From Microbacterium sp. (GTDB lineage: Bacteria > Actinomycetota > Actinomycetes > Actinomycetales > Microbacteriaceae): a stretch of DNA of 64,000 nt. The stretch's first letter is position 1; each line of letters starts with the position of its first letter. Positions 3,958 through 27,554 of the stretch are shown piece by piece. The stretch is from the NCBI RefSeq assembly GCF_017305435.1, contig NZ_JAFKIP010000008.1, forward strand, positions 187,216 through 251,215. The letters run 5' to 3'. The translations under genes and the position numbers were made by a program. A model generated the notes under the pieces. That model saw nothing but the letters and a program-made list of their open reading frames with translations. It was not told the DNA's origin and did not search any database.

Positions 3958-3987
3958 GCTTTTCGTCACCGGTTGGTGATTAAAAGC
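3958..3987. promoter_or_regulatory. Dyad site F: 30-bp near-perfect palindrome GCTTTTcgTCACCGGTTGGTGAttAAAAGC between the ABC/sulfatase operon and TetR-1
   Basis: Read directly from the sequence. 26 of 30 positions are self-complementary. It lies about 105 nt from the SBP ATG and about 113 nt from the TetR-1 ATG, in the divergent promoter region. Confidence 0.55.
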
Positions 3988-4091
3988 TACTCCCGATTGT
4001 GTCGCGCTGTCATTACGGCTGTGTAACGATACGTAACCGTTTGGAGACAAAAAGCGCGCCCCGTAGGCTTCTCTCCAGAGGAGGAGCCGAC

Positions 4092-4694
4092 ATGCCGAAG
4101 ATCGTCGACCATGACGAGCGTCGCGAACAGATCGTGGATGCCACATGGCGACTCATCCACCGCGGGGGGTTCGAGAAGGCCACGATGCGCGAGATCGCCG
4201 CAGAGGCGGGGTTCGCCCACGGTGCGCTCCAGCGCTACTTCCCCAACAAGGAGAGCGTCCTCGCCGCAGCATTCGTCCGTGCCCACACCCGGACGAACGA
4301 TCGCGCACGTGCTGAGCTCGAAGCCGAGAGAGGGCTCAGCGCATTGAGGACGCTGTGCCTCGAGATCATGCCGATCGATCGCGATCGTGCGCAGGAGTCG
4401 CGCGTCGTGGTCGCCTTCTGGGATCGTGCCGTCCAGGACCCCGAACTCTGGAACGCGCATCGGGCGAACGCTCTCAACTGGCGCCGGCAGATGCAGACGT
4501 TCCTCGATCAGGCGCGCGCCGACGGGGAGATCGGCGACGGCGTCGTCGACGAAGTGGTCATCGATCAGATCTCGAGCATGAACGCCGGTCTGCAGGTGAT
4601 GTGCCTGCTCATGCCCGACGAGACGACGGCCGCACGGCAGATCGCGGCGCTCGATGCGATTCTCGACGGACTGCGCGCGTCGGCGGCCCCCTGA
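4092..4694 (+). CDS. TetR/AcrR family transcriptional regulator (TetR-1)
   Basis: ORF 3999..4694(+) trimmed to ATG 4092, preceded by GAGGAG. N-terminal HTH MPKIVDHDERREQIVDATWRLIHRGGFEKATMREIAAEAGFAHGALQRYFPNKES. Paralog of CDS 23600..24184. Confidence 0.9.
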   Translation: MPKIVDHDERREQIVDATWRLIHRGGFEKATMREIAAEAGFAHGALQRYFPNKESVLAAAFVRAHTRTNDRARAELEAERGLSALRTLCLEIMPIDRDRAQESRVVVAFWDRAVQDPELWNAHRANALNWRRQMQTFLDQARADGEIGDGVVDEVVIDQISSMNAGLQVMCLLMPDETTAARQIAALDAILDGLRASAAP

Positions 4695-4701
4695 CGAGGG
4701 G

Positions 4702-6396
4702 TCAGCGTTCGTACACGACACGGCCGCCCACCACAGTGAGGTCGACACAGAGGTCGCGCAGCGCATCCACGTGATCCTCGTTCGGCAGCGACCCGGACAG
4801 CACGACGAGATCGGCCCACCGCCCCGGCGCAAGGGTCCCCTTCGACGCGCGGGCCCCGTCGAGGACGGCGGCGGTCACCGTCATCATCGCGACGGCATCG
4901 AGGACGGAGACCGCTTCGGGGTCGCCGGAGCGCGGCATCCCGTCGACCTGCGAACGCTGCACCGCGGTGATCACGGCTTCACGCCAATCGGGGTCGACCA
5001 CCGGGGCATCGGAGGACAGGGTCACCGTGACTCCTGATCGGAGGGCGGAGCCGAGTGGCTGTCGCACGCTCTGGCGTTCCGGACCGAGCAGCACGTGGCC
5101 GATCCCGGAGACCATCCGCGAGATCACGGGGTTGGCGGTCCAGCCGATGTTCGCGTCGGCGAGCTGCCGCATACCGGAGGCGGGAAGGAAGTCGCCGTGG
5201 ATGAGGTAGGGGGTGGCGGCGCGGTCCGTGTCGGAGAGATCGAGGAGGGCGTCGACCACGGCATCCGAGGCGGCATCACCGGTCGCGTGCACGCCGGCCT
5301 GCAGCCCCGACGCTCCGATCGCGGCGAGCACGTCACGCAGGGTGGACGTGCGTTCCGCGTCGTCCTCGCCGCCGACGGAGAGGCGTCCGCGAGCCGGAGG
5401 GTCGCCGTAGGGCTCGCGGTGCCAGGCGGTGCCGCTGCGTTGGATGCCGTCGGCGAAGACCTTGACGCCCGCGACGCGCAGCATGTGCGGGTCGAGGTCG
5501 TCGAAGGCGTGTGGGAGAGGCCCGGCAAGGCCTGCCCTGACACTCTGCGCGGTCTCGCCGCCCGTGCCGGAGAAGGTCAGCAGCACCCCTGTGCGCACCG
5601 TGAGCTGGTCGGAGCGCGCGAGGGAGGCGAGCGCGGTCAGTGCGGCGGGCGACGCCGAGCCATCGAAGAGTGTGGCATGCCCGGGTCCGATCCCGGGGTC
5701 GGTGACCGAGGTGATTCCGAGGGCCGCCAGGTCGCGCTGAGCCTCGATCAGGACCCGGGCGAGAGTGTCGGCGTCGACGGCGGGAAGGGCGCGGAGGACG
5801 AGAGCCGTCGCCGCGTCGGCGAACACTCCCGTCGGCTCTCCGGACTCGTCGCGCACGACGACGCCGCCCTCGGGGTCGGGCGTATCGCGGTCGATGCCGA
5901 GGACGTCCAGCGCGGCCGATCCGACGAGCAACTGGTGTCCGGTGCGGTCGAGGAGCACGGTCGGGACGTCCTCGATCCCGTGTGCGGCGAGCGCGCGATC
6001 GACGTCAGCCGTCGTCCCGGGCCGACCGAGGGCCTCGGCATCCCACCCCTGCGCGCGGATCCACCCGTCGTCGCCGATCGCATCCGCGGTGAGCACTTCG
6101 GCGAGGCCCTCCCACGACGGCACCGACGCCGATGAGACATCGCGCAGTCCGTGCCGGGCCATCGCATAGCAGACGAGATGCAGGTGCGTGTCGTTGATCC
6201 CGGGGATCACGGTGCGGCCGGCGAGCTCGACGACCCGGGTGCGCGGACCGATGTGCTCGGCCACCGTGGGCCCGACCGCCAGCACCGTGCCGCCGCCGAT
6301 CGCAATGGCATCGCTCACTGCCGGCGGCACGCCCGGAGCCCAGTCGGCGAAGGTGACGACCGCGCCCCCGCGCAGGACGAGATCGGCGACGGTCAT
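4702..6396 (-). CDS. Amidohydrolase family 3 (YtcJ-like metal-dependent hydrolase)
   Basis: C-terminal 564 codons of ORF 4702..7737(-), starting MTVADLVLRGG. Motifs PGINDTHLHL and VHATGD. Lies 4 nt downstream of the amine oxidase stop. Paralog of 26120..27523. Confidence 0.88.
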   Translation of the reverse strand: MTVADLVLRGGAVVTFADWAPGVPPAVSDAIAIGGGTVLAVGPTVAEHIGPRTRVVELAGRTVIPGINDTHLHLVCYAMARHGLRDVSSASVPSWEGLAEVLTADAIGDDGWIRAQGWDAEALGRPGTTADVDRALAAHGIEDVPTVLLDRTGHQLLVGSAALDVLGIDRDTPDPEGGVVVRDESGEPTGVFADAATALVLRALPAVDADTLARVLIEAQRDLAALGITSVTDPGIGPGHATLFDGSASPAALTALASLARSDQLTVRTGVLLTFSGTGGETAQSVRAGLAGPLPHAFDDLDPHMLRVAGVKVFADGIQRSGTAWHREPYGDPPARGRLSVGGEDDAERTSTLRDVLAAIGASGLQAGVHATGDAASDAVVDALLDLSDTDRAATPYLIHGDFLPASGMRQLADANIGWTANPVISRMVSGIGHVLLGPERQSVRQPLGSALRSGVTVTLSSDAPVVDPDWREAVITAVQRSQVDGMPRSGDPEAVSVLDAVAMMTVTAAVLDGARASKGTLAPGRWADLVVLSGSLPNEDHVDALRDLCVDLTVVGGRVVYER

Positions 6397-6400
6397 GCGC

Positions 6401-8431
6401 TCAGTGCCCGCAGGTGCAGGCAGCGCCCTCACCGCAGCCGCCGTCGACGGCCTCTTCGGCGCCCGATCGCACGGCGTGCGCCTGGCTCGATTCGGGGACG
6501 TCCATCGCGGGGTTGACGTCGCTGAACCCGTACGGCTTGAACCAGAACCCCGCGTAGTCGACGGGCATGATGGGCCAGTCCTCGGGGCGGGGGATGTGGG
6601 TGAGGCCGAACGTGTGCCAGAGCACGAGGTCTTCGCCGTCGATCGAGCGGTCGTCGGCCGTGTAGGCGGGGAGCCCGGCTCCGCCCTGGTGGGCGTTCGG
6701 GTACCGACCGGCGGGCCAGCGCTCGTCGGGGTCGTACGCGGTGCCCCAGAGGTGCTTCGTCGCGAACGCGGCGCGTGCCGCGACGGTGGATGCCGGGTCG
6801 GCCATGAGCAGGGCGGTCGGCTCGGGGACGAGGTGGTACGCGGTCGGCTTGCCGATGTAGTTCCTCTTCGACGCCGACTGCACCTCCCACACGCGCGCGA
6901 CGGACGTGTCGGCGAGGCGCTGCGCCTCGTGTTCGGTGCGCAGGGGTGTCGCCGTCCAGGTGAAGGCGTTGCCGAAGGGATTGTCCGCGCCCATCGGGAT
7001 GCGTGCGGCGTCGATCTCGATGAGGCGGTTGTCGTCACCGTCGATCGAGACGTCGAGCCGCGCCGAGAACAGGTGCTGGTGGACCGGTGCGAATACCCCC
7101 GGCGCGATCTCGGGGGCGTGACGGTTCTCGGCGCCCGGGATCCCGGCGCCGACGAACACGATGCCGGTCGCCTTCGCCTCGACCTGGATGGAGCCGTCGA
7201 GGTAGAAGTACCAGAAGAAGCCGTAGTCGTAGTTGCCGATCGTGGAGAAGTACGAGACGACCAGGCGCCGCGAACGGCGCACCTGCGCGCCGACGGGCCC
7301 CGGCTCGGTGTGCTTCCACAGCACGCCGTAGTCCTCCTCGTGCATGCACACGACGTTCGGGATCTTGACTGCGTGCCCGTGGTCGTCGGCGACGTAGCCG
7401 TCGAAGTAGCGGATGACGCCGAGGCAGTCGCAGCCGAGCTCGAGGTGGTTCCCGTTCTTGCCGAGGAGGTACTCGCCGGCGTCGAAGTAGCTGATCCAGA
7501 AGCGCGTGTTGCTCGTGTCGCCGTAGGGGACGACCATCTCTGGCACGCTCGCGCGCGAGAGGACGGACCGGTCGTCGAAGCGCACGTCGTGCAGCACGAG
7601 GCCCTCGCGGGCGTTGAAGTCGACGCGCAGCGACCAGTTCTCCCACTGCACGTGATGGCCGTCGACATGGAAGCTCGGCCCCTCGGGCTGCGTGATCTCG
7701 ATCGGCTTGAGCGTGTCGCGGGCCGGGCCCACGGCATCCGGCGTGTACTTCCCGCTGCCGGCCGGGACGGGGATGTCGCCGTCGTCCTCGATGCCGATGA
7801 CCTCGTTCGTCACGAGGTCGACGTGCACGATCAGCCCCTCGACGGGATGCGCCCACGGGATGTCGTCCTCGCTGTCGCGCAGGAACGTGAGGGAGCGGAT
7901 GACGCGGCGGCCCACCTCGTTCTCGCGCCCGACGAATCCGGGGGCGAGCGGGCCGCAGAAGGCGAGGTCCATCCGGTCCGCCAGGCCGCGGCGGGTCATC
8001 GCGGTCCGCCACTCCGTCGAGGCCTTCACGATCTCGGCGGCCCGCTCGTACTCCTCGAAGAGGTACTGCGGCTGTCCGTAGGGAGCCGTCGTCGTGTCGT
8101 ACGAGCGCTGAGAGACGATCTCCCCGCGGGTGATCGACACGATCGCCTCCGTGACGTCGCCCGTCGCGGCATCCAACAGGGTGACATCGACGCGGCGATC
8201 GATCTCGTCGCCCGGCCTCCAGGCCGCGAGTTCGGTCTTGTCGTACTCGTCCGGCAGGAGCATCGGCACCCGCACGCTCTCGGTGAGAAGTCCCGCGCCG
8301 ACGAGGATCTCGCGCGCGCGGTCGATCTCGGCGGCTGTCAGCGGGTCGCGCGGATGCCGCGGTGCGCTCTCGACGGCGCCCGGAGGAAGCAGATCGGGGT
8401 TGCCGCCGGCGTGGTCGTGATGGTGCGTCAT
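6401..8431 (-). CDS. Copper-containing primary amine oxidase (topaquinone enzyme)
   Basis: ORF 6401..8431(-), 676 aa. TPQ precursor motif TIGNYDY, His ligands in VHQHLF and WHTFGLTH. Overall resemblance to Arthrobacter phenylethylamine/histamine oxidase. RBS GGAGGA upstream. Confidence 0.93.
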   Translation of the reverse strand: MTHHHDHAGGNPDLLPPGAVESAPRHPRDPLTAAEIDRAREILVGAGLLTESVRVPMLLPDEYDKTELAAWRPGDEIDRRVDVTLLDAATGDVTEAIVSITRGEIVSQRSYDTTTAPYGQPQYLFEEYERAAEIVKASTEWRTAMTRRGLADRMDLAFCGPLAPGFVGRENEVGRRVIRSLTFLRDSEDDIPWAHPVEGLIVHVDLVTNEVIGIEDDGDIPVPAGSGKYTPDAVGPARDTLKPIEITQPEGPSFHVDGHHVQWENWSLRVDFNAREGLVLHDVRFDDRSVLSRASVPEMVVPYGDTSNTRFWISYFDAGEYLLGKNGNHLELGCDCLGVIRYFDGYVADDHGHAVKIPNVVCMHEEDYGVLWKHTEPGPVGAQVRRSRRLVVSYFSTIGNYDYGFFWYFYLDGSIQVEAKATGIVFVGAGIPGAENRHAPEIAPGVFAPVHQHLFSARLDVSIDGDDNRLIEIDAARIPMGADNPFGNAFTWTATPLRTEHEAQRLADTSVARVWEVQSASKRNYIGKPTAYHLVPEPTALLMADPASTVAARAAFATKHLWGTAYDPDERWPAGRYPNAHQGGAGLPAYTADDRSIDGEDLVLWHTFGLTHIPRPEDWPIMPVDYAGFWFKPYGFSDVNPAMDVPESSQAHAVRSGAEEAVDGGCGEGAACTCGH

Positions 8432-8559: not shown

Positions 8560-8573
8560 TCTACGATCGTAGA
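8560..8573. promoter_or_regulatory. Dyad site A: perfect 14-bp palindrome TCTACGATCGTAGA
   Basis: Lies between the divergent amine-oxidase operon and the sulfatase gene. It overlaps candidate -10 hexamers on both strands (TATATT 8555..8560 on +; TAGAAT 8563..8558 on -). It ends 15 nt before the sulfatase ATG. Confidence 0.55.
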
Positions 8574-8587
8574 TCAAAGGAGACGCG

Positions 8588-10894
8588 ATGACGGATCGAA
8601 TCCCCGATGGCGCACGTGGATACGACGGCTTCGGCGGGGTCGTCGCCACCCGGACGTCGCAGTCCACGCCGTGGTGGCCGGCGCCCCGACGCGCGCGTGC
8701 CGGAGCGCCGAACGTCATCGTCGTCCTCGTCGACGACATGGGCTTCAGCGACGTGTCGCCCTTCGGGGGAGAGATCGACACGCCCGCCGTCCACGCGCTC
8801 GCCGACGAGGGGTACCGGTTCGCGAACTTCCATGCGACGCCGCTGTGCTCACCGTCCCGCGCGGCGCTGCTGACCGGAGCGAATCCGCATCGGGCCGGCT
8901 TCGGCATGGTCGCCCACGCCGATCCGGGCTATCCGGGGTACCGCATGCTGCTGCCGCGCGAGCTCCCGACCCTTGCGGAGTCCTTCCGTGAGAACGGCTA
9001 CGCGACCTTCATGGTCGGAAAGTGGCATCTGACGCTCGAGTCGCTCATGCACGACGGCGCCGACCGTTCCTCGTGGCCGGTCCAGCGCGGGTTCGATCGG
9101 TACTTCGGGTCGATGGACGGGTTCACGACCCTGTATCACCCGCATCGCCTCGTCCGCGACAACTCGGTCGTCGCCGAGGATCCGGGGGGCGAGGACTACC
9201 TGACCGACCGGCTCACCGACGAGGCCATCGCGATGATCGACGGGCTGCGGGCGAACGAGGCATCCCGCCCGTTCTTCCTCTACTTCGCCCACCACGCCGT
9301 CCACGGGCCGGTGCAGGCCAAACCCGAAGACATCGCCAAGTACCGCGGCGCGTACGACGCCGGATGGGATCGCGTGCGCGCGGAGCGTCTCGAGCGTCAG
9401 ATCGCCGCCGGCCTGATGCCCGCGGGAACGGTGCTCCCCGCGGCGGCGGACAGCGACGACATCCCACGATGGGACGAGCTCGACGACGAAGCGCGTGCCC
9501 TGTTCGCGCGGCACATGGAGGTCTACGCCGCGGCCGTCGACGGCGTCGATCAGTCGCTCGGCCGGCTCGTCGCGCACCTCAAGGAGATCGACGAGTACGA
9601 CAACACGATCATCGTCTTCACGAGTGACAACGGAGGGACGGCGGAGGGCGGTCCGACAGGAACCCGCAGCTACTTCAGCCAGTTCGTGCACGCCGCGGAT
9701 CTGCCGCGTGACTGGGTGCGCGACGTCGAGAGGCCGCTCGACGAGATGGGTGGCCCCCGCGTGCACGGGCACTACCCTGCGGGCTGGGCGCGAGTCTCGA
9801 ACACGCCGTTCCGTCAGTTCAAGGGGTCGCTGTACGAAGGCGGCATCCACACCCCGCTCGTCGTCTCCTGGCCCGCCGGCCTGCCGCGGGCGGTCGGCGA
9901 CGACGGTGTCCGGACGGGGTTCGCGTACATCACCGACCTCGCGCCCACGCTGCTCGAGCTCGCGGGCGCGACGCGCGCCGCGGAAGCGGCGGGCGTCCGC
10001 GCGGAGGATGCCGATGGCGAGAGCTTCGCCGCCGCTCTGCGCGACAGCGGAGCTCCGGGCCGCGCCGATCAGTACCTCGCGCTCGTCGGCCAGCGCGCAT
10101 ACTTCGGCCGCGGATTCAAGGCGGTCGCCCCCGCACTCGGCCAGACGGATGACGACCTGCGCGATTGGCGGCTGTACGACCTCGCCGCCGACCCGGCCGA
10201 ATCGATGGACGTCGCTGCCGAGCACCCCGACATCGTGGCCGACCTCGCCGAGCGGTGGCGCGTGGCGGCGTGGCGGAACACCGTCTTCCCGCTCGGCGAC
10301 GACTTCTCGCTCTTCGGCGTGCGCCCCGCGACAGACCTCGAGTACTCCCAGCCGGTGACGATCCGGCCCGGCACACCGACGCTCGAACGGTGGCGGTCGG
10401 CGCGACTCGTCTCGTTGCGCTCGTTCGTGGTCGAGGTCGACCTCGACGGCGACCTCGGGGAAGGCATGCTGTTCAGCCACGGCGATCAGGGTGGAGGCTA
10501 CGCCCTCTATGCCGAGGCCGGTGCGCTCGTGTTCGCCTACAACGCGTACGGCCGGATGACCCGGAGTGCGGTCGAGACAGCTGCTGCGCGGCGGGTGGTC
10601 GTGCGATTCGCCGCGCTCGCCGCGTTCGAGCGGGAGGTCGTCGTCGAGGTCGACGAGGACGAGCGGATGAGGCTCGATCGCCTCCCGATGCTCATCGGGA
10701 TGGCGCCGTTCACGGGCATCAGCGTCGGCGCCGACGGCGGCGGGCCGGTCGACTGGGAGCTCTTCGAGCGACACGGACGATTCCCGTACTCGGGCGATCT
10801 GCGTTCGGTGCGCTACGTGCCCGGAGCCACGGCGCCCTACAACCACGAGGTCATGGTCGCCGTCGACGAGATCAGCGCCCGGTTGATGGACTGA
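8588..10894 (+). CDS. Arylsulfatase (Cys-type, formylglycine-dependent)
   Basis: ORF 8588..10894(+), 768 aa. VIVVLVDDMGFSD and CSPSRAALLTG (C-x-P-x-R) motifs. RBS AAAGGAG. Confidence 0.92.
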   Translation: MTDRIPDGARGYDGFGGVVATRTSQSTPWWPAPRRARAGAPNVIVVLVDDMGFSDVSPFGGEIDTPAVHALADEGYRFANFHATPLCSPSRAALLTGANPHRAGFGMVAHADPGYPGYRMLLPRELPTLAESFRENGYATFMVGKWHLTLESLMHDGADRSSWPVQRGFDRYFGSMDGFTTLYHPHRLVRDNSVVAEDPGGEDYLTDRLTDEAIAMIDGLRANEASRPFFLYFAHHAVHGPVQAKPEDIAKYRGAYDAGWDRVRAERLERQIAAGLMPAGTVLPAAADSDDIPRWDELDDEARALFARHMEVYAAAVDGVDQSLGRLVAHLKEIDEYDNTIIVFTSDNGGTAEGGPTGTRSYFSQFVHAADLPRDWVRDVERPLDEMGGPRVHGHYPAGWARVSNTPFRQFKGSLYEGGIHTPLVVSWPAGLPRAVGDDGVRTGFAYITDLAPTLLELAGATRAAEAAGVRAEDADGESFAAALRDSGAPGRADQYLALVGQRAYFGRGFKAVAPALGQTDDDLRDWRLYDLAADPAESMDVAAEHPDIVADLAERWRVAAWRNTVFPLGDDFSLFGVRPATDLEYSQPVTIRPGTPTLERWRSARLVSLRSFVVEVDLDGDLGEGMLFSHGDQGGGYALYAEAGALVFAYNAYGRMTRSAVETAAARRVVVRFAALAAFEREVVVEVDEDERMRLDRLPMLIGMAPFTGISVGADGGGPVDWELFERHGRFPYSGDLRSVRYVPGATAPYNHEVMVAVDEISARLMD

Positions 10895-12131
10895 GCTCTC
10901 CGATCTCTCCCGCGCCGGGTGCGCGGGCGGCGCGGCGCACGCCGATCCAGGCAATCACGGCGGCGGCCGCCGCGGCGATCGCCATCGTGGCGGCCATCGT
11001 CAGCGTCGTCGTGCCGCCGAGCGCCGCGAGCGGCGCGACGACCGGTCCGAAGAGGAACGTCGACGTGCCGAGGAGCGCCGCGGCCGTGCCGGCACGCGCA
11101 CCGTGCCGGGCGAGTGCGAGCGTCGATCCGTTCGGCCCGCTCGTGCCGGCGAGCAGCATGAACAGCACGAGCGAAGCCGCGATGAGGGCACCGGAGGCGC
11201 CCGCGGACGCGAGCGCGAGGAGCACGAGGGTGGATGCCAGCGTCGCGGTGATCCCCGTGAGGTACATCCGCGCGGGCCCGAGCCGAGGGACGAGCACACG
11301 GCTGATCTGGCCGCCGGCGATGCTCGCGAGAGCGCACGCGGCGAAGACGAGGCTGAACGCCTGCGGAGACAGGTCGAACTGCTCCTGCATGACGAAGCTC
11401 GACATCGACAGATACGTGAAGAACGCGACGCCGCCGGCGGCTCCCGCGAGCAGAACGGCGCGGAAGAGCGGGTCGCGCACGGCCTCGCCGGCGTGGGCGA
11501 GGGCCTCCGGCATCCCGCCCGCATGACGCTCGGCGGGCGCGAGAGTCTCCGGCAGCGCGAACAGGACGAGCGCGACGAGGCACACCCCGACGCCGCCGAG
11601 CACCCAGAACACGCCCCACCAGTCCATGACGTAGGCGAGCTGCCCGCCGACGATCGGCGCCACGATCGGCGCCGTGCCCGACACGACGAGCAGCAGTGAC
11701 AGCATGCGCGAGAGGGCGACGCCCGTGAAGAGGTCGCGTGCGACCGCGAGAGAGATGACGATGCCGGCCGATCCGGCGAGGCCCTGCAGGAATCGCGCCG
11801 CGAGGAGCATCTCGATCGTCGGAGCGAGAGCGCAGCAGACCGACAGCACGGCGAAGGCGGCGACCCCCACGACGAGCGGGCGCCGGCGGCCGAACCGGTC
11901 GCTCAACGGCCCCGCGACGAGCTGACCGAGGCCCAGCCCGATCATGCAGGCCGACATGGTCGCCTGCGCGAGCGCGTCGGAGACGTCGAAGCTCCGCGCG
12001 AGCTGCGGCAGATGCGGCAGGTAGAGATCCATCGACAGCGGCCCGAACGCTTCGAGCAGACCCAGCACGAGCACGGCCCGCAGTGTCGAGAGGCGGCGTG
12101 CCGGAACACGCGGCGTCTCCGTGCCGCTCAC
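10872..12131 (-). CDS. MFS transporter, Bcr/CflA-type drug/metabolite exporter
   Basis: ORF 10872..12239(-) trimmed to GTG 12131, which overlaps the esterase stop (GTGA). 12-TM pattern with motif A GPLSDRFGRRRP. The 3' end overlaps the convergent sulfatase by 23 nt. Confidence 0.85.
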   Translation of the reverse strand: MSGTETPRVPARRLSTLRAVLVLGLLEAFGPLSMDLYLPHLPQLARSFDVSDALAQATMSACMIGLGLGQLVAGPLSDRFGRRRPLVVGVAAFAVLSVCCALAPTIEMLLAARFLQGLAGSAGIVISLAVARDLFTGVALSRMLSLLLVVSGTAPIVAPIVGGQLAYVMDWWGVFWVLGGVGVCLVALVLFALPETLAPAERHAGGMPEALAHAGEAVRDPLFRAVLLAGAAGGVAFFTYLSMSSFVMQEQFDLSPQAFSLVFAACALASIAGGQISRVLVPRLGPARMYLTGITATLASTLVLLALASAGASGALIAASLVLFMLLAGTSGPNGSTLALARHGARAGTAAALLGTSTFLFGPVVAPLAALGGTTTLTMAATMAIAAAAAAVIAWIGVRRAARAPGAGEIGELSPSTGR

Positions 12132-18139: not shown

Positions 18140-18157
18140 AAAAACTCCGATGAACGC

Positions 18158-18185
18158 TTGACGTCTTTTTCCACGGATGTAGACT
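18158..18185 (+). promoter_or_regulatory. Putative housekeeping-type promoter of the peptide ABC operon (-35 TTGACG, 16-nt spacer, -10 TAGACT)
   Basis: Hexamers read directly from the sequence. They lie about 100 nt upstream of the SBP ATG at 18286, in an AT-rich island within about 70% GC DNA. Confidence 0.45.
18170..18183. promoter_or_regulatory. Dyad site C2: TCCACGGATGTAGA preceded by TTTTT
   Basis: Occupies the spacer and -10 region of the predicted promoter. The centre-to-centre distance to C1 is 44 bp. Confidence 0.5.
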
Positions 18186-18285
18186 AACCAGCACGGCACA
18201 TCGGAGTGGCGTCGTTTCCGGCTCACGCAGCGGACAGCGAAGCTCCTTCGGACCTTCTTCCCCACCCGCACCGAGAGTAGGAAAC

Positions 18286-19821: not shown

Positions 19822-19888
19822 TGTCCAGGAGGTGGCGGGCTCCGCCCGCCACCTCCCCGGCCCGGTTCCCACCCCCGATTGGACCCCG

Positions 19889-20830
19889 ATGATCCTGTTC
19901 ACCCTCAAGCGGCTGCTGAGCGGCGTCGTGCTGCTGGTGGCCGTGTCCGTGGCGACGTTCTTCCTCGCGCACACCGCGATCTCAGACCCCACCGCGGCGC
20001 TCCTGGGCACCTCCGCGAGCCCCGAGCAGCAGGCGGCGCTGGCGCAGAAGATCGGCATCGACCGGCCGCTGCTCGTGCAGTTCTGGGACTGGTTCTCGCA
20101 TCTGCTGATGGGCGACTTCGGTGTCTCCTGGCGCAACTTCCAGCCCGTCGGAGCGCAGCTCGCCATCAAGGTCCCGGTGACCCTGTCGGTCGTGACCGCC
20201 GCGACGATCATCACCGCGGTCGTCGGAACCGCGTTCGGTCTCATCGCGGGGCTCCGCCCCGGCGGATGGTTCGACCGCATCACGAAGGCGATCTCGGTCG
20301 TCCTGTTCGCGCTGCCCGGGTTCTGGGTGAGCCTCGTGCTCGTCATCTGGTTCGCGATCGATCTGAAGTGGTTCCCGGCGGTCGGGTACGTCCCGCCGAC
20401 GCAGTCCGTCGTCGGCTGGCTCGGGTCGATCACGCTGCCGTCGGTGGCGCTGGCGCTCGGAGGCATCGTCGCCGTCGCAGAGCAGCTGCGCAACGCCGTC
20501 CTGGCATCCAAGCGCCAGGACTACGTGCGAACGCTTCGCAGCCGGGGGCTGAGCGGGCCGCGGGTCACCGTGCACATCCTGCGGAACTCCTCACCGGCCG
20601 CGCTCACCGTCCTCGCCCTCATGTTCGTGGGGCTCCTCTCCGGAGCGATCGTGGTGGAGGCCATCTTCAGCCTCCCCGGCATCGGTCAGCTGACCCAGGC
20701 GTCGTCGCAGAACGGCGACATCCCGATGCTCCTCGGCATCACGGTCGTCTCCATCGTCTTCGTCGTCATCGTCAACCTCCTCCTCGACCTCGTGCTCGGC
20801 TGGATCAACCCGAAGGTGCGCGTGTCATGA
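19889..20830 (+). CDS. ABC permease (DppB/OppB-like)
   Basis: ORF 19832..20830(+) trimmed to ATG 19889 (MILFTLKRLLSGVVLL..., the canonical DppB-type N-terminus). Confidence 0.85.
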   Translation: MILFTLKRLLSGVVLLVAVSVATFFLAHTAISDPTAALLGTSASPEQQAALAQKIGIDRPLLVQFWDWFSHLLMGDFGVSWRNFQPVGAQLAIKVPVTLSVVTAATIITAVVGTAFGLIAGLRPGGWFDRITKAISVVLFALPGFWVSLVLVIWFAIDLKWFPAVGYVPPTQSVVGWLGSITLPSVALALGGIVAVAEQLRNAVLASKRQDYVRTLRSRGLSGPRVTVHILRNSSPAALTVLALMFVGLLSGAIVVEAIFSLPGIGQLTQASSQNGDIPMLLGITVVSIVFVVIVNLLLDLVLGWINPKVRVS

Positions 20831-22707
20831 CCGCAACGACCCTGACCGGGGCCATCGACCCCGAACGCGCGCGCCGTGGCGGGCTGCTGGGGCGCTTCCT
20901 CCGACGCCCCGCGGGCCTCATCCCGCTCGTCATCTTCGTGCTCATCGTGCTCGTCGCCGTCTTCGCGCCCCTCCTCGCTCCGCACGACCCGGCCTTCGTC
21001 GACCTCTCCATCGCCAAGGCGCCCCCGAGCGCGGCGCACCCGCTGGGCGGCGACTCCACCGGTCGCGACATCCTCAGCCGGCTCATCTTCGGCACCCGCA
21101 TCACCCTGTGGGGCGCGCTCGTCACGATCATCACCGCCCTCGTCGCAGGCGTTCCCGCCGGCGTCGTCGCCGGGTACTTCGGCGGCGTGTTCGACCGGAT
21201 CTCCACGTGGGTCAGCGACGCCCTGCAGTCGATCCCCGGCATGATCATCCTGCTCGTCGTCGCGGCGGGCACGCGGTCGAACTTCGTCCTGCTCATGATC
21301 ACGGTCGGTGTCTTCATGGCGCCGGGCTACTTCCGGATCGCCCGCTCCACGACGATCGCGGTGCGTGCCGAGCCGTACATCGATGCCGCTCGCGTGTCCG
21401 GCCTCGGCAACGCGCGCATCCTCGGTGCGCACATCATCCGCTCCGTGTACGCGCCGGTCATCATCCAGACGGCGCTCACGGCCGGCATCGCGATGGGCAT
21501 CCAGGCGGGCCTCCAGTTCCTCGGCATCGGCGATGCGAACACGCCCAGCTGGGGCGCCATGATGAACGAAGGCTTCCGGCTGATGCTGTCGAACCCGCTC
21601 ATCCTGTTGTGGCCGTCGGCGGCGCTCGGCATCACGATCGCGGTGCTCGCCGTCATGGGGTCGACACTCGCCGAGCTCGTCCAGGTCCGCACGCCCGAAG
21701 CGAAGAAGGACCGGGCGCTGGCCCGACGCGCCCGCCGCGGCGCCGCCGGAGTCGCCATCGTGACGGAGGAGGAGGTCCGGCCGCAGCCCGTGACGCTCTC
21801 CACGGGGACGCTTCGCCACATCGCGGAGAGCTCCGCCGCGCGCATCGAGAATCTCCGCGTCACGTACGACACGCCCGCCGGGCTCGTCGAAGTCGTGCAC
21901 GGGATCTCCCTCGACGTCGGTGCCGGCGAAGTCGTGGGGATCGTCGGCGAATCCGGCTCGGGCAAGTCCCAGACGGTCTTCTCCGTGCTCGATCTGCTCC
22001 CCGAGGGCGGCAACGCCCACGCGGACGGCATCTGGGTCGGCGGCAAGGACGTCACGCGGCTCGACCGGCGCCGTCGCCACGCACTGCTCGGCCGCGAGAT
22101 CGGCTACATCCCGCAGGAGCCGATGTCGAACCTCGACCCGTCGTACACGATCGGCCATCAGCTCGTCGAGCCGCTGCGCAGCGTCCACGGGATGCCGCGC
22201 GCGCAGGCGCGGACGCTCGCGCGCGACATGCTCGTGCGCGTCGGGATCGTCGATCCCGACCGCGTCCTGCGGAGCTACCCGCACCAGATCTCCGGCGGCA
22301 TGGCCCAGCGCGTTCTGATCGCCGGGGCGATCGCCGGCAAGCCGTCGCTGCTCGTCGCCGACGAACCCACGACAGCGCTCGACGTCACGGTTCAGGCCGA
22401 GGTCCTCGAGCTGCTGCGCGAGCTGCAGCAGGAGTATGGCATGGCCCTGCTCATCGTGACGCACAACTTCGGCGTCGTCGCCGACATCTGCGACCGGGTC
22501 GTCGTCATGCGGCACGGCGACGTCATCGAGGAGGGCATCGTCGACGACCTGTTCGCCCATCCCGCCGAGGACTACACGCGCGCGCTCATCGACGCATCGC
22601 TGGATGCCGCGGAGGGCCGCGCCGAGCTCGACGCGCGCTGGCGCGGCGACCCGGCATCCAGTGCTCCCGTCGCGTCCGCGACGACGTCCACGGAGGTGAA
22701 GGCATGA
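20827..22707 (+). CDS. Fused ABC permease (DppC-like) and ATP-binding domain (DppD-like)
   Basis: ORF 19879..22707(+) trimmed to ATG 20827 (ATGA overlap). The N-terminal half has about 6 TM segments. The C-terminal half has Walker [10 protein letters not shown], signature ISGGMAQRV and Walker B LLVADEPT. It is one continuous frame. Confidence 0.88.
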
Positions 22708-23546
22708 CCGCGCCGCTGCTGCAGGTGGAGGATCTCGTCGTCGAGTACGGCCGGGGCAGGCACGGCTTCCGCGCCCTGCACGGGGTCTCGCTCGAGATCG
22801 CCTCGGGGGAGTGCCTGGGTCTCGTGGGCGAGTCGGGCTCTGGGAAGTCGACGCTCGGCAAGGCGGTCCTGGGGCTCGCGCCCGTGGCATCGGGCGCCAT
22901 CCGCTTCGACGGGGAGGAGATCACGCACGCGCGCGGGGCGCGGAGACGTGCGCTCGCCGCCGACGTGCAGGTCGTCTTCCAGGATCCGTACGGCTCGCTC
23001 GACCCGGCCATGACGATAGGTGACATCCTCGCCGAGCCGCTCACCGCCGCGGGTGTCGGGACGCGCGAAGCGCGCGGCCGCGTCGCCGAGATGCTCGACC
23101 GGGTGCGGCTGCCGCTGACCGCCGCCGAGCGGTACCCGAGCGAGTTCTCCGGCGGGCAGCGGCAGCGCATCGCGATCGCGCGCGCACTCGTGCGGCGTCC
23201 GCGCCTCATCGTCTGCGACGAGCCCGTGAGCGCCCTCGACCTCACGACGCAGGCCACGATCATCGACCTGTTCATCGAGCTGCAGCGCGACACGGGCGTG
23301 AGCTATCTCTTCGTCTCGCACGACCTCGGCGTCGTGCGGCGCATCTGTCACCGCGTCGCCGTCATGTATCGCGGCGAGATCGTCGAGACCGGAGACGGGG
23401 AGCAGGTCACGCGCGCCCCCGCGCATCCCTATTCGGAGCGGCTGCGGCTGGCCTCGCCCGTCGCCGATCCTGCGCTCCAGCGACAGCGACGTCAGGACTG
23501 GCTGGCGATTCGGGAGGTGCCGGGTGTCACCGCGCCGGTACGGTAG
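22704..23546 (+). CDS. ABC ATP-binding protein (DppF/OppF-like)
   Basis: ORF 21108..23546(+) trimmed to ATG 22704 (ATGA overlap). [25 protein letters not shown]. Confidence 0.9.
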   Translation: MTAPLLQVEDLVVEYGRGRHGFRALHGVSLEIASGECLGLVGESGSGKSTLGKAVLGLAPVASGAIRFDGEEITHARGARRRALAADVQVVFQDPYGSLDPAMTIGDILAEPLTAAGVGTREARGRVAEMLDRVRLPLTAAERYPSEFSGGQRQRIAIARALVRRPRLIVCDEPVSALDLTTQATIIDLFIELQRDTGVSYLFVSHDLGVVRRICHRVAVMYRGEIVETGDGEQVTRAPAHPYSERLRLASPVADPALQRQRRQDWLAIREVPGVTAPVR

Positions 23547-23599
23547 CACGGGAGCCCCGGCGGTTCCCGGGGGTTCGGAAAGCAGGGTGGAGACCTCGG

Positions 23600-24184
23600 A
23601 TGCCGAAGATCATCGATCACGACGAGCGACGACGCGAGATCGTGGAGGTCGCCAAGCGGATCATCCTGAAGGGTGGGTTCGAGGCGGCGACGATGCGCTC
23701 GATCGCGACCGAGGCGGGCTTCGCCAACGGCGCGCTCAAGCACTACTTCCCGGGGAAGGAGTCGATCGTCGCGGCGACCTTCGAATCGATCCTCGCCGGC
23801 ATGGAGGACGCGGTGGCGGCGGCTCCCGCGGCCGAGCCGGGCGTGCAATTGGAGCATTTCCTGCGCACGCCCATGCCGCGGACCGAGGAGGAGATCGCGA
23901 GCGGGCGGGTGCTCCTGGCCCTCTGGGAGTATGCGATGTCCAACGAGGAGCTCGCGGCGCTGTACCGCGCGTTCCTGCAGCGCTGGCGCGATTCGTTCAC
24001 GGAGTACATGAGCGCCGCGCGGGACGCGGGGGCGATCTCCGTCGACGCGCCGTACGACCGCCTCGCCACGGAGTACATGTCCGTGGTGATCGGTGCGACG
24101 GTCGTGAACCTGATGTTCTCGAACGGCAGTCGCATCGCCGACTTCGACGAGTACCTCGACAGCTTCCTGGCGCGCATGCGGTGA
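23600..24184 (+). CDS. TetR/AcrR family transcriptional regulator (TetR-2)
   Basis: ORF 23600..24184(+), 194 aa. MPKIIDHDERRREIVEVAKRIILKGGFEAATMRSIATEAGFANGALKHYFPGKES. By hand alignment, about 40 of the first 60 residues are identical to TetR-1. Confidence 0.9.
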   Translation: MPKIIDHDERRREIVEVAKRIILKGGFEAATMRSIATEAGFANGALKHYFPGKESIVAATFESILAGMEDAVAAAPAAEPGVQLEHFLRTPMPRTEEEIASGRVLLALWEYAMSNEELAALYRAFLQRWRDSFTEYMSAARDAGAISVDAPYDRLATEYMSVVIGATVVNLMFSNGSRIADFDEYLDSFLARMR

Positions 24185-24218
24185 GCGCGGCGCGCCCCTT
24201 CCGAAGGGACGACGCCGC

Positions 24219-24956
24219 ATGACTCTCCTCGCACCCGCCGTGCGCCGCACCGTGGCCACGGGCGAGTGTTCGGGACCCGCCGTGGTGCTGCTCCACGGCT
24301 TCGCCTCCCGCGGTGATCTCGATTGGCCGGATGCCGCGTGGGCGGAGCCCTTCGCCGCATCCGGGCGTGACGTGCTCGTCGTCGACCTGCCGGGCCACGG
24401 CGACGCCGCCCGCCCCCTCGGAGCGCCCGCACCGACGAGTGCGGTGATCGCTGCGCTCGCCGATCTCGCCCGAGCCGAGGGGGAGATCGATCTCGTCGGC
24501 TACTCCCTGGGCGCGCGGCTCGCGTGGGACCTCGCGCAGGCTCCGGGCGTCCGCGTACGACGACTCGTCCTCGGCGGCCTCAGCCCCGTCGAGCCGTTCG
24601 GGATGGTCGACGTGGCGGCGGCGCGCACTGCCGTCGCGACCGGTTCCCCGGTGGACGACCCCCTCACCGGGATGATCACGGCGATGGCGACGGCCCCCGG
24701 CAACGACCCGACCGCTCTCCTCGAGATCGTGGAGGGGTTCGCCTCGGAGCCGTTCGACCCCGACGCGGGCGCGCCCGCCGTGCCGACGCTCATGATCGCC
24801 GGCGTCGACGACCCCATGGCGCAGGGGGTCGACGACCTCGCGGTGCGGATCGCCGACGAATCCGTCGTGCTCCTCGAGCGCGTCCCGGGCGACCATGTCG
24901 CCGCGCTGCACTCGCCGGAGCTGCGCGCGGCCGTGCAGCGCTTCCTCGCCGGCTGA
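24219..24956 (+). CDS. Alpha/beta fold hydrolase
   Basis: ORF 24219..24956(+), 245 aa. HGF oxyanion region, nucleophile elbow GYSLG, C-terminal GDH. RBS GAAGGGA. Confidence 0.85.
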   Translation: MTLLAPAVRRTVATGECSGPAVVLLHGFASRGDLDWPDAAWAEPFAASGRDVLVVDLPGHGDAARPLGAPAPTSAVIAALADLARAEGEIDLVGYSLGARLAWDLAQAPGVRVRRLVLGGLSPVEPFGMVDVAAARTAVATGSPVDDPLTGMITAMATAPGNDPTALLEIVEGFASEPFDPDAGAPAVPTLMIAGVDDPMAQGVDDLAVRIADESVVLLERVPGDHVAALHSPELRAAVQRFLAG

Positions 24957-24999
24957 CGCGTCCGCACGCGCCGACGACGGCGCCCCTCGTTCTTTATTT

Positions 25000-25013
25000 T
25001 CAACAAACGTAGA
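25000..25013. promoter_or_regulatory. Dyad site D: TCAACAAACGTAGA flanked by TTTATTT and TGAAAC
   Basis: Lies in the 81-bp gap between the alpha/beta hydrolase and the O-methyltransferase, ending 24 nt before the OMT ATG. It shares CAAACGTAGA..AAACAC with site B. Confidence 0.45.
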
Positions 25014-25037
25014 TGAAACACCCAGGAAAGGCATCCC

Positions 25038-26021
25038 ATGACCACCACTCCCGACGCCGGCCGCATCCTCGAGATCGCGACGGGCTACATGGCCGCGAAG
25101 CAGCTGTTCGAATCGAGCCGGATCGGCCTGTTCGCGGCGCTCGCCGACGGATCGCAGGATGCCGCGGGCATCGCCGCGGCGACGGGGGTGAGCGAGCGCA
25201 TGGCGCGCATCCTCGCCGACGCGATGGCGGCGAAGGGGCTGCTCGTCCGCTCCGCGGGCACCTACGCGCTCGCGCCCGATGCTGCGGCCTACCTCACGGG
25301 CACCGCCGCAGAACTCGATCTCGCTCCGTTCCTCACGTTCCTCTCCGAGATCAGCTACCCCCACTGGCTGCAGTTCGGGCACACCGTCGATACGACCGAA
25401 CCCGGTGATCTGCAGATGGACGACGAGCGCTGGGCGACGTTCATGGCCGGCGTGATGACCTACAACCTTCTGCACGGTCAGGAGTTCGGGCGTCTCGTCG
25501 ACCTCGCCGGGGCGACGAACGCGCTCGACTTCGGCGGGCTGTCGGCCGCGTTCGCCATCGGTGCCATGCGGGCGAACCCGGGGCTGCGCACGACGTTTCT
25601 CTACGCCCCGGGTTTCGAGGACGGCATCGCCGACGCCATCGCCGAGGCCGGGCTCGCCGATCGGGCGACAGTCGAGGTCGGCGACACGGCGACGGCGACG
25701 CCGCAGGGCTCGTACGATGCGGTCTTCGCGAACCATGTCATCCACCGCTTCACGGCCGAGGAGAACCGCGGCATCTTCGCGCACCTGCGCGCCGCGGCCG
25801 TGCCGGGCGCGACGCTGACGGTCCTCGACTTCTTCCTCGACGACGACGCCGAGCAGCGCGCGCTCGACGCTCTCCACGCGGGCGAGTACCTCGTGATCGA
25901 TGGCACGGTCGTCTACCCCGAATCCGAGGTGCGTGCCTGGCTGACCGACGCCGGGTGGGACGTGCGCGAGAAGATCGCGCTGCCGGGGAGCCCGCGGGTC
26001 CTGGTCGCGACCGCGGTCTGA
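25038..26021 (+). CDS. SAM-dependent O-methyltransferase (class I, with N-terminal dimerisation domain)
   Basis: ORF 25038..26021(+), 327 aa. N-terminal winged-helix-like dimerisation region, then the SAM motif LDFGGL and a downstream acidic loop. RBS AGGAAAGG. Confidence 0.82.
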   Translation: MTTTPDAGRILEIATGYMAAKQLFESSRIGLFAALADGSQDAAGIAAATGVSERMARILADAMAAKGLLVRSAGTYALAPDAAAYLTGTAAELDLAPFLTFLSEISYPHWLQFGHTVDTTEPGDLQMDDERWATFMAGVMTYNLLHGQEFGRLVDLAGATNALDFGGLSAAFAIGAMRANPGLRTTFLYAPGFEDGIADAIAEAGLADRATVEVGDTATATPQGSYDAVFANHVIHRFTAEENRGIFAHLRAAAVPGATLTVLDFFLDDDAEQRALDALHAGEYLVIDGTVVYPESEVRAWLTDAGWDVREKIALPGSPRVLVATAV

Positions 26022-26029
26022 CCGCGACG

Positions 26030-26066
26030 GGAAGAGGGCGGATGCCGGCGGCATCCGCCCTCTTCC
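26030..26066. terminator. GC-rich hairpin between the convergent O-methyltransferase and amidohydrolase-2 genes
   Basis: GGAAGAGGGCGGATGCC-ggc-GGCATCCGCCCTCTTCC, a stem of about 16-17 bp starting 9 nt after the OMT stop. There is no U-tract on either strand. Confidence 0.5.
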
Positions 26067-26119
26067 GCGGTCTGCAGGTCTACGGGATCTGCAGGATCTG
26101 TGCGGACTGCGATTGCGAT

Positions 26120-27523
26120 TCAGGCGGTCGCTTCGGCCGCGACCGCCTCGGCGTCCACGTCCGGAGTGGTCCCGCGTTCGAAGACGATGCGCCCACCGAC
26201 GACGGTGGCGTCGACGTCGATGCCGGCGACGCGCGTGCCGGGGTCGAGCGGGTCGGCGGACAGGACGCACAGGTCGCCGACGAAGCCGGCGGAGAGCGTG
26301 CCCTTCCACTCCGAGGCGCCGTCCTGGCGCGCGGCATCCACCGTCATGCGGCGCACGAGGGCGCGGCGCGATGCCGTCGAGTCGGCGATGCCGGCCTCGC
26401 TCAGGAGCCGGACGGCGGCGTCGACGCTCGCCCGCCAGTCCGGCGTCGCGATGGGGGCGTCGCTCGTGACGGTCGTGAGGATGCCGCGATCGATCATCCG
26501 CGCGAGCGGCCACGCCCGCGCCGCGCGCTCCGCACCCAGGGTGCCGCTCGCCCAGGCGTGGGTGAACGCGGCGATGAGGGGCTGCACGGCGGCGCCGACG
26601 CCGATTGCGCGCATCCGCTCGATGAGGTCGTCGAACGCGAGGTCGGCGTGCACGACGTAGTGCGGGTGCCGGCGCGGCCCGGCGTCCGCCTCCTCCAGGA
26701 CGCTCAGGAACTCCGCGATCGAGCGGTCACCCGTCGCGTGCACCGCGACCTGCAGATCGGCGTCGTGAGCGAGGCGCACCATCTGCCGGAAGGCGTCGAG
26801 CGCGCCGTCCGGGCCGCGCGTCAGGAGGGCGCCGGAGCTGCCGTCGGCGTAGGGCTCGCGGACCCACGCGGTGCGCATCGGCGGGATGCCGTCGGCGAAG
26901 ATCTTCACGCCGGGGATGCAGAGCCACCGGTCATCGGTCGCGGGGGCGGGGGCCTGGATGCCGGTCCGGAACGCCTCGAGATCGCCCTCGCCGTCGATCG
27001 TCCCGAACAGGCGGAGGAGCGTCACGCGGCTCGTCTGCACACCTTCGCGGTGCAGGTCGAGGTAGGTGTCGAGCATGGACGTGCCGAAGCATCCGGTCGG
27101 TCCGCCGTCCTCGCCCGGTCCGATGCCTGGTTCGGTGTAGCTCGTGATCCCGAGCGAGGCGAGCAGCCGCCAGGCGCGCTGCAGCGCTGCCCGCCGCTCG
27201 CGGTTCGTCGTGACGAGGGGGCCGCTGTCCTCATCGTGCGAGGCCTCGTGGTCGCCGAAGAACAGTGCGGGCCAGCGGGCGCCGAGCCATGCGGCGTGGA
27301 GGTGCGCGTCGTTGATGCCCGGGAGCACGGTGCGCCCGTCGAGGTCGATCACACGCCTCGCGCGCGGCGCCAGCGTGCGCGCGTCGTCGTCGTGGGCGAC
27401 GACGAGGCCGTCTCGGATCGCGATCGACGAGGCCGCGGTCGCGGCATCGTCGAACAGGTGGATGCGGCCGCCGGTCAGGACGAGATCGGCGGGGGCGTCC
27501 GCTGTCGCCAGCGCGTCTGTCAC
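26120..27523 (-). CDS. Amidohydrolase family 3 (YtcJ-like), second paralog
   Basis: ORF 26120..27664(-) trimmed to the GTG (VTDALATADAPADLVLTGG...) preceded by GGGAGG. The start was placed by ORF-track phase arithmetic. Motifs PGINDAHLH and VHATGD. Confidence 0.85.
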   Translation of the reverse strand: MTDALATADAPADLVLTGGRIHLFDDAATAASSIAIRDGLVVAHDDDARTLAPRARRVIDLDGRTVLPGINDAHLHAAWLGARWPALFFGDHEASHDEDSGPLVTTNRERRAALQRAWRLLASLGITSYTEPGIGPGEDGGPTGCFGTSMLDTYLDLHREGVQTSRVTLLRLFGTIDGEGDLEAFRTGIQAPAPATDDRWLCIPGVKIFADGIPPMRTAWVREPYADGSSGALLTRGPDGALDAFRQMVRLAHDADLQVAVHATGDRSIAEFLSVLEEADAGPRRHPHYVVHADLAFDDLIERMRAIGVGAAVQPLIAAFTHAWASGTLGAERAARAWPLARMIDRGILTTVTSDAPIATPDWRASVDAAVRLLSEAGIADSTASRRALVRRMTVDAARQDGASEWKGTLSAGFVGDLCVLSADPLDPGTRVAGIDVDATVVGGRIVFERGTTPDVDAEAVAAEATA

Positions 27524-27540
27524 AGTGCCTCCCTGATTAT

Positions 27541-27554
27541 TCCACCAGCGTAGA
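27541..27554. promoter_or_regulatory. Dyad site E: TCCACCAGCGTAGA flanked by ATTATT and CGAAAAGG
   Basis: Begins about 18 nt upstream of the GTG start of amidohydrolase-2 (minus strand). The minus strand reads TTTTCGTCTACGCTGGTGGAATAAT. Confidence 0.45.

Follow-up and report, generated by a model that had tools for sequence, protein, structure and literature searches.

The 64,000-nucleotide stretch of contig NZ_JAFKIP010000008.1 from Microbacterium sp. analyzed here (the window) contains a cluster of catabolic genes with short dyads in front of its transcription units. It also encodes two paralogous BetI-type TetR repressors, TetR-1 and TetR-2, and comparison with other genomes makes it probable that the two control this mobile cluster, each through an operator class of its own. 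The first class of dyad (class I) has the core TCNAC-N4-GTAGA between a T-tract and an A-tract. The class I motif is real, functional and private to this cluster, and it is very probably the operator of a cluster-encoded TetR-type repressor, for which TetR-2 is the candidate. An earlier note on this DNA had listed seven dyads of one architecture (sites A, B, C1, C2, D, E and F), and all seven sequences are present where it placed them. The common architecture holds for the first six; site F belongs to a second class and has a partner, F2, that had been overlooked.

We scored the window with a class I matrix that is 27 nt wide and was trained solely on 178 unique sites from other genomes. A scan with a motif matrix had been suggested earlier, and this one recovers all six class I sites at 24-39.5 bits with no match in coding sequence. 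These predicted operators are site A (8560-8573, TCTACGATCGTAGA, a perfect palindrome; 28 bits), site B (17057-17070, TATACAAACGTAGA; 37.5 bits), site C1 (18126-18139, TCCACAGTTGTAGA on the minus strand; 28.3 bits), site C2 (18170-18183, TCCACGGATGTAGA; 34.5 bits), site D (25000-25013, TCAACAAACGTAGA; 39.5 bits) and site E (27541-27554, TCCACCAGCGTAGA; 34.7 bits). The second-class sites score weakly with the same matrix (F2 13.2 bits, F 8.7 bits). Nothing further is found in the window, and 20 simulated 64-kb sequences gave zero matches of at least 8 bits. The placement of the sites outside genes, also claimed in the note, is borne out: A to F and F2 all fall within the non-coding fraction, which is 4111 nt (6.4%) of a window of ~70% G+C.

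Simple pattern searches of the window agree with the matrix. For the strict pattern TCNACN4GTNGA, 1.36 matches are expected and 7 are present, and 1 of 100 shuffles gave at least 7. Five of the matches are A, C1, C2, D and E. Those that remain, at 34761 and 47746, are chance occurrences of the GC-rich TCGAC/GTCGA type that lie inside coding sequence and have nil score with the extended matrix. Sites B (TATAC) and F (TCACC/GGTGA) depart from the strict pattern, as the note had stated. With up to one mismatch allowed, TCNACN4GTAGA matches at 17 places over both strands, where 7.0 would be expected; none of 100 shuffles reached this number. One such match (TCCACATTGATAGA, 57667-57680, minus strand) is located at the start of the gene at 57676-58791; its score with the extended matrix stays under 8 bits, and it is probably due to chance.

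Column counts over the 178 unique sites give the consensus T5-6-TCNAC-RNNY-GTAGA-(C/A)(T/A)AAAA. The half-sites are fixed, the four central positions are variable, and the T/A flanks are symmetric. Written with GTAGA rightmost, the sites are T-rich in the left flank and A-rich in the right flank, so that the flanks described in the earlier note are real. The orientation of C1 is opposite to that of C2.

The dyad is conserved at orthologous promoters. TetR-2 (23600-24184, plus strand) was used as query against one genome per species, which gave 80 loci with flanks of up to 10 kb on each side. Identity to TetR-2 is 62-87% in Microbacteriaceae, 49-57% in Streptomyces, Saccharopolyspora, Kibdelosporangium and relatives, 53-57% in Devosia-like alpha-proteobacteria, and 40-42% in Leucobacter. 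About 70 of the 80 loci, from all of these groups, carry the dyad at orthologous promoters. A site was counted for a gene when it had at most one mismatch and one perfect half and lay within 300 nt upstream. By this measure a class I site precedes the aldo-keto reductase (AKR) gene AKR2 in 65/65 loci, the short-chain dehydrogenase/reductase (SDR) gene in 61/64, the gene for the binding protein of the ATP-binding cassette (ABC) transporter in 58/63, and the amidohydrolase gene (orthologues of 26120-27523) in 52/55. For the methyltransferase-like gene the count covers Microbacteriaceae, where 33/39 loci have a site. The genes internal to the transporter operon have none (permease 0/64, permease-ATPase 0/59, ATPase 0/78), and neither do two unrelated neighbors, an XRE regulator (0/20) and PEPCK (0/20). 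The proposal that each site stands before the first gene of a unit therefore holds for four first genes, at 58/63 to 65/65 loci. A matrix scan of the 1.55 Mb of loci placed 253/253 matches of at least 20 bits inside the cluster, and there is no class I dyad in the flanking DNA of any locus. Such a distribution, in which divergent genomes have the motif before orthologous first genes and nowhere else, is that of a local multi-operon regulon.

The sites also follow their genes. The common gene set comprises the esterases, AKR, alcohol dehydrogenase (ADH) and SDR on one side of the divergent AKR, followed by the ABC transporter with TetR-2 and a hydrolase, the methyltransferase-like gene and the amidohydrolase. 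Its order is collinear in Microbacterium and in the alpha-proteobacteria; in Streptomyces, Saccharopolyspora and Leucobacter the genes have been reshuffled. The sites track the genes through these rearrangements and into the alpha-proteobacteria. Where the hydrolase or the ADH heads its own transcription unit (in Saccharopolyspora and Leucobacter), a site has been added in front of it. No sites are present at a Microbacterium resistens locus that has kept TetR-2 and the hydrolase and lost the rest of the cluster. Positions 12128-27554 of the window are collinear with a cluster of ~14 kb in Maritalea, Cucumibacter, Devosia and relatives (L039, L042, L043, L044, L048), at 45-79% protein identity. 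Since gene order, operators and the -35 and -10 elements of the transporter promoter are all kept from Microbacterium to Devosia-like alpha-proteobacteria, the cluster appears to have been transferred between phyla. A plasmid search had a distant relative (34%) as its sole match. In Cucumibacter marinus (L042) a second, paralogous gene for an SBP_5 binding protein (56% identity) is preceded at ~175 nt by a class I site (TCAACGTCCGTAGA, 16459-16472); thus, the regulon may recruit extra transporters in some genomes.

Both regulators match TetR_N (PF00440; E = 4.8e-15 for TetR-1 and 2.4e-11 for TetR-2, both above the gathering score) and the BetI-type C-terminal domain TetR_C_6 (E = 3.5e-13 and 4.2e-12, respectively). 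The features of the TetR family are present, i.e., an N-terminal helix-turn-helix domain, an all-helical C-terminal domain for ligand binding and dimerization, and palindromic sites near or over the target promoters. TetR-1 (4092-4694, plus strand, 200 aa) is identical to a protein annotated from a Microbacterium sp. metagenome-assembled genome. TetR-2 has 194 aa and is the predicted class I repressor. The two proteins are 39% identical overall and ~70% identical over the first 60 residues, which include most of the helix-turn-helix, and they share the N-terminus MPKI(V/I)DHDERR.

TetR-2 is the sole regulator that is constant in the cluster across all lineages, including the alpha-proteobacterial copies, in which the operators and the promoter are still recognizable. 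Its gene follows the transporter genes after a gap of 53 nt. We did not find a class I site or a promoter-like or terminator-like signal in this gap (scan of 23400-25100); thus, TetR-2 is probably co-transcribed with the transporter genes and would be autoregulated through C1 and C2.

The recognition helices of these regulators sort by operator class. The class I helix is FANGALK[HR]YF (FANGALKHYF in TetR-2), and it is found even in the 40%-identical Leucobacter protein, which has class I sites in its cluster. Class II helices read [FY]AHGA[LMI][QA]RYF (FAHGALQRYF in TetR-1), and a third class in Leucobacter reads [TY][AT]HSAFARYF. The classes differ at position 43 (N/H), position 44 (G/S) and position 47 (K/Q/A). 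The assignment of TCTAC/GTAGA to TetR-2, which had been proposed earlier, is supported by the constant presence of this regulator, the conserved sites and the class-sorted helix, and TetR-2 is accordingly our predicted partner for class I.

Class II comprises sites F and F2 beside TetR-1. Site F (3966-3979, TCACCGGTTGGTGA, with flanks CTTTTCG and TTAAAAG) is a predicted operator between an NMT1/TauT-type ABC-sulfatase operon on the minus strand and TetR-1 on the plus strand. Site F2 (4034-4047, TAACCGTTTGGAGA), also predicted, is 44 nt upstream of the TetR-1 start. The presumptive target operon (2-3834, minus strand) encodes an NMT1-type binding protein, two permeases, an ATPase and a sulfatase, and is cut by the window edge. 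The same ABC-sulfatase operon stands beside TetR-1 orthologues in five other loci (L081, L082, L084, L073, L078). Two to three TCACC-N4-GGTGA or TCTCC-N4-GGNNA sites per region accompany the TetR-1 orthologues of Microbacterium hominis, of a metagenome contig and of three Leucobacter loci. The equivalents of F and F2, both with altered central nucleotides, are TCACCAACTGGTGA and TAACCACTTGGAGA in M. hominis (L081), and TCACCGCTTGGTGA and TCTCCATGTGGAGA in the metagenome contig (L084); the F2 orthologue in Leucobacter is TCTCCAAnnGGTnn. Site F is conserved with differing central nucleotides in L081, L084, L073, L078 and L075. The suggestion that F may be specific to TetR-1 is strengthened by this recurrence and by the helix that differs with class.

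A third class, AGACC-N4-GGTCT (equivalent to GAGAC-N6-GTCTC), occurs twice in the Leucobacter DNA that separates a sulfatase gene from a TetR-1-like paralogue (L074, 4300-4480; L075, 5255-5440; L079, 6210-6410). The paired helix is HSAFARYF.

It is unlikely that the dyads are TetR operators with a different or overlapping pairing, i.e., with both proteins on class I, with heterodimers or with the classes swapped. The similar N-terminal regions of the two regulators (~70% identity over 60 residues) would permit such an arrangement, the class I matrix does score F and F2 weakly, and site A is ~4 kb from TetR-1. However, class I sites are fully kept in many loci that have the TetR-2 type alone within 20 kb, e.g., in alpha-proteobacteria and Streptomyces, class II sites occur solely beside TetR-1-type genes, and the recognition-helix residues differ consistently by class. 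Low-level cross-binding between the paralogues is possible.

That the class I dyad is bound by another transcription factor encoded elsewhere, with TetR-2 having a different target or none, we regard as quite improbable. A 5-4-5 dyad is not unique to TetR proteins, and the loci were selected via TetR-2, which makes part of the linkage a matter of construction. Such a factor would nevertheless have to account for a motif that is restricted to the cluster, with none in the flanking DNA, and that has moved with the cluster between phyla in the company of TetR-2 as the sole common regulator. The XRE regulator neighbors the cluster in Microbacterium only, and its own upstream region has no site.

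The preferred reading, in which TetR-2 acts at the class I sites, is consistent with the position of C2 inside the core promoter of the ABC operon. A promoter-like sequence, TTGACG-16 nt-TAGACT, was found by consensus scan at 18158-18185 (plus strand). The T-tract and left half-site of C2 lie in the spacer between the -35 and -10 elements, and the -10 hexamer TAGACT takes its first four bases from the right half-site. In the alignment this promoter, TTGCGC/TTGCGT-16-TAGACT/TAGAAT, is kept from Microbacterium to the alpha-proteobacteria. At the other sites the geometry is that of -10-like hexamers picked by eye in alignments. On the minus strand site A contains GTAGAAT and so places a TAGAAT hexamer toward the amine oxidase operon. 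Site B presents TATAAT in its minus-strand left half toward the SDR operon (TAGAAT or TATACT in relatives) and TAGAAA in its right half toward the AKR.

Given this overlap, the motif could be thought of mainly as a promoter element, a -10 hexamer with an AT-rich spacer for RNA polymerase or an alternative sigma factor. Extended by two bases, the right half does read TAGACT, TAGAAT or TATAAT at several promoters, and AT-rich flanks stand out in a 70% GC genome. A promoter element would not be expected to show a two-fold dyad with symmetric T/A flanks, to be kept in actinobacteria and alpha-proteobacteria alike, or to be confined to one cluster. The motif also occurs in both orientations and at variable distance to the start codons, and C1 lies upstream of the -35 element of the promoter-like sequence that overlaps C2. 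The distal half and the T-tract are equally conserved at one-directional promoters, which suggests that the flanks are part of a protein-bound element and not of a promoter alone. We consider the promoter explanation very unlikely. A hairpin in RNA or DNA, or an artifact of chance or of a repeat element, is barely credible: the palindrome of site A could form a 5-bp stem with a 4-nt loop, but positions 3 and 12 are complementary in 74 of the 178 unique sites with no compensating changes, most sites do not lie downstream of the likely transcription start, none of them has a match to an Rfam family, the similarity covers ~27 nt at orthologous promoters and is a poor fit to a mobile repeat, and chance is excluded by the foreign-matrix scan and the per-gene conservation counts. 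The sole Rfam match in the window is an unrelated FMN riboswitch (RF00050, 46144-46305, minus strand; 70 bits, E = 8e-14) upstream of the gene at 44912-46072 (minus strand).

With TetR-2 as the class I repressor, we infer the following mode of control. A TetR-2 homodimer would most likely bind the T-tract, TCNAC-RNNY-GTAGA and A-tract at sites A, B, C1, C2, D and E, the element of ~26 nt being covered by one or two dimers. Its targets would be the divergent gene pairs at A and B, the ABC operon, the methyltransferase-like gene and the amidohydrolase gene at 26120-27523. As class I sites are on or beside core promoters, bound TetR-2 would occlude RNA polymerase, and at B a single dyad would carry back-to-back -10-like hexamers for both divergent promoters. 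TetR-1 would bind TC(A/T)CC-N4-GG(T/A)GA at F and F2 and control its own gene and the divergent NMT1/TauT-type ABC-sulfatase operon. Release of the repressor is expected when a small-molecule inducer, which would be the substrate after import or an intermediate of the pathway, occupies the C-terminal domain.

The genes at the class I sites were mapped by codon statistics and then Pfam annotation. The gene assignments in the earlier note agree with this map for every transcription unit, with the detail that the amidohydrolase at site E is on the minus strand. Site A lies between a Cu amine oxidase-amidohydrolase operon (4702-8431, minus strand; amine oxidase 6401-8431, amidohydrolase 4702-6396) and a sulfatase gene (8588-10894, plus strand, 768 aa) whose start codon is 14 nt past the site. 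The same amine oxidase/sulfatase arrangement exists in one related genome (L083), where the counterpart of site A is TCTACGAATGTAGA (37 bits). In three Microbacterium loci (L006, L029, L037) the class I cluster itself contains the sulfatase orthologue, with AKR2 on one side and the ABC operon on the other, which fits membership of the sulfatase in the TetR-2 regulon.

Site B is in the divergent region between the SDR-ADH-AKR-esterase-esterase-MFS operon (10872-17004, minus strand) and AKR2 (17194-18102, plus strand), both identified by Pfam and synteny. Within this operon an esterase and an AKR (13129-15115, minus strand) are two ORFs with a 26-nt overlap, and in L083, the closest relative, they are called as one fused 663-aa protein (11144-13135). 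This may be a real fusion, or there may be a frameshift in one of the two assemblies.

Site C1 is 30 nt upstream of C2 and is an auxiliary operator that is present in some relatives only (L001, L004, L010, L040). The peptide/opine-type ABC transporter operon behind C2 (18286-24956, plus strand) encodes the binding protein, a permease, a permease-ATPase fusion, an ATPase, TetR-2 and an alpha/beta hydrolase. Just past C2, at 18190-18225, the leader contains a further conserved element, (C)CACG(A/G)CAC-N5-6-GTG(G/A)CGTC, in Microbacterium, Subtercola, Streptomyces and Saccharopolyspora; the alignment shows that it is absent from the alpha-proteobacterial copies. An RNA structure formed by CACGACAC-N6-GTGGCGTC is not supported, as a fold of 16 genomes gave five nearly invariant pairs and no covariation. 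The element may serve as a second binding site for a protein or as a signal in the leader.

Site D is 24 nt before the methyltransferase-like gene (25038-26021, plus strand), which has O-methyltransferase Pfam domains. Site E is 17 nt upstream of its target, the amidohydrolase gene (26120-27523, minus strand; Amidohydro_3), assigned by Pfam and synteny.

Several points weigh against the two-repressor interpretation or narrow it. The loci were gathered by similarity to TetR-2, so that part of the co-occurrence of this regulator with the motif follows from the selection. The conservation of site A consists of one fairly close relative (L083) and gene-order evidence. The amine oxidase operon of M. 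hominis has no class I site; thus, membership of this operon in the regulon may be lineage-specific. Taken by itself, the class II core pattern shows no enrichment in the window, and the support for this class comes from comparison with other genomes. The AT-rich flanks could be promoter elements and not protein contacts. A consensus scan for sigma-70-type promoters finds one at C2 only, and the position of the operators relative to transcription starts is uncertain except at C2, most of all at D and E.

The closest known analogue in logic is the BetI1/BetI2 system of Ruegeria pomeroyi, in which control of a choline-O-sulfate/choline cluster, sulfatase included, is shared between two paralogues that have different palindromes (PMC12442346). 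The BetI1 box is a 14-bp palindrome, ATTGACG*CGTCAAT, within a 29-bp footprint (PMC12442346). As proposed here, a paralogous BetI-type pair serves a sulfatase-containing catabolic cluster and each member has its own palindromes over promoter elements of divergent operons or of its own operon. The 29-bp footprint resembles the conserved element of ~26 nt, and both systems have the ..AC/GT.. form of half-site. The operators differ in sequence and spacing, TTGAC-N2-GTCAA in Ruegeria versus TCTAC-N4-GTAGA here; the enzymes are different as well, and so, presumably, is the effector. The regulators themselves are not assigned to BetI by TIGR03384 or NF001978: TetR-2 scores 62.2 against a cut-off of 201.3 and 60.5 against 118, respectively, and TetR-1 scores 53.8 and 50.1 bits. 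The 768-aa sulfatases of the window reach 89 bits for choline-sulfatase against a cut-off of 433 bits. We did not find betA or betB (choline or betaine-aldehyde dehydrogenase genes) among the Pfam-annotated genes of the window. A betI box with linked betA, betB and betC is not what this cluster has; its operators are TCNAC-N4-GTAGA and TCACC-N4-GGTGA. Other named NCBIfam regulators, e.g., ScbR and KstR, were all far below cut-off for both proteins.

Among other TetR-family systems, the operator tetO of Tn10 TetR has CTATC half-sites with a 5-nt spacer, and the AmtR box of Corynebacterium glutamicum is tttCTAT-N6-AtAGat/aA, in which correct spacing is essential for binding (PMC2723105). Both share with class I a TetR-family homodimer on a short dyad with CTA-type half-sites, and AmtR has T/A-rich flanks as well. 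The overlapping divergent promoters of tetR/tetA recall site B, and AmtR and McbR are cases of one TetR protein over many promoters. The cluster is not part of an AmtR regulon, as the spacing is CTAC-N4-GTAG here versus CTAT-N6-ATAG, and AmtR responds to the GlnK protein, not to a small molecule. Neither Tn10 TetR nor AmtR is closely related in sequence to the window regulators, and neither is among their solved-structure matches. McbR of C. glutamicum is a TetR-type repressor of sulfur metabolism with a multi-promoter regulon and the strictly conserved operator TAGAC-N6-GTCTA (cited in PMC2723105). The box resembles the Leucobacter third class, GAGAC-N6-GTCTC, and neither of the two classes of the window, and the likeness is one of the operator box.

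The closest solved relative of these regulators is PDB 2nx4 (full-length alignment, E = 6e-33), which has the same N-terminus (VPKLVDHDERRR) and helix-turn-helix. It was deposited merely as 'Transcriptional regulator, TetR family protein' and carries no function, operator or ligand information. We found no description in the literature of this motif with a TetR protein, nor of the gene combination in Microbacterium.

Solved relatives do not tell enough to name a substrate. For the methyltransferase-like protein the best match is DsyB (E = 7e-20), the 4-methylthio-2-hydroxybutyrate (MTHB) S-methyltransferase of dimethylsulfoniopropionate (DMSP) synthesis. The amidohydrolase matches uncharacterized hydrolases only. 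For the ABC binding protein the nearest relative is an unnamed ABC substrate-binding protein, followed by binders of agropinic acid and glutathione. A link of AKR2 to the deoxynivalenol reductases of Devosia was considered and dropped, as nothing tied these to this cluster. The DsyB-like methyltransferase, the two sulfatases and the TauT-type transporter give the cluster an organosulfur flavor.

A broader proposal, which we put forward tentatively and with more doubt than confidence, is that the cluster is a modular catabolic island that crosses phyla, that serves an unrecognized substrate class (possibly amine- and ester-bearing organosulfates) and that is regulated by a small radiation of BetI-like TetR proteins, in which a few helix substitutions re-target the 5-4-5 dyad to TCTAC, TCACC or AGACC. 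A half-site that doubles as the -10 hexamer would allow promoter and operator to be transferred, and to work, together in actinobacteria and alpha-proteobacteria. If true, nature would already offer a set of orthogonal TetR/operator pairs, and operator choice in the subfamily would follow a simple read-out code.

The mechanism proposed, in which a TetR protein occupies a palindromic operator overlapping a promoter, is a textbook one, and what is new is an uncharacterized regulon of a familiar kind. Of most interest are how widely the cluster is conserved, its unnamed substrate and the three-way correspondence of helix and operator. For ~27 kb of unannotated catabolic genes the sites supply a testable wiring diagram of promoters that would respond together, a candidate repressor and its 14-bp boxes. 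With the operator as a guide, the full gene set could be delimited in Microbacterium, Leucobacter, Streptomyces, Saccharopolyspora and Devosia-like bacteria. Screening with a TetR-2 reporter could lead to the inducer and, through it, to the substrate. Three operator classes with three helix variants are a compact natural case of specificity divergence in the TetR family and may have engineering value.

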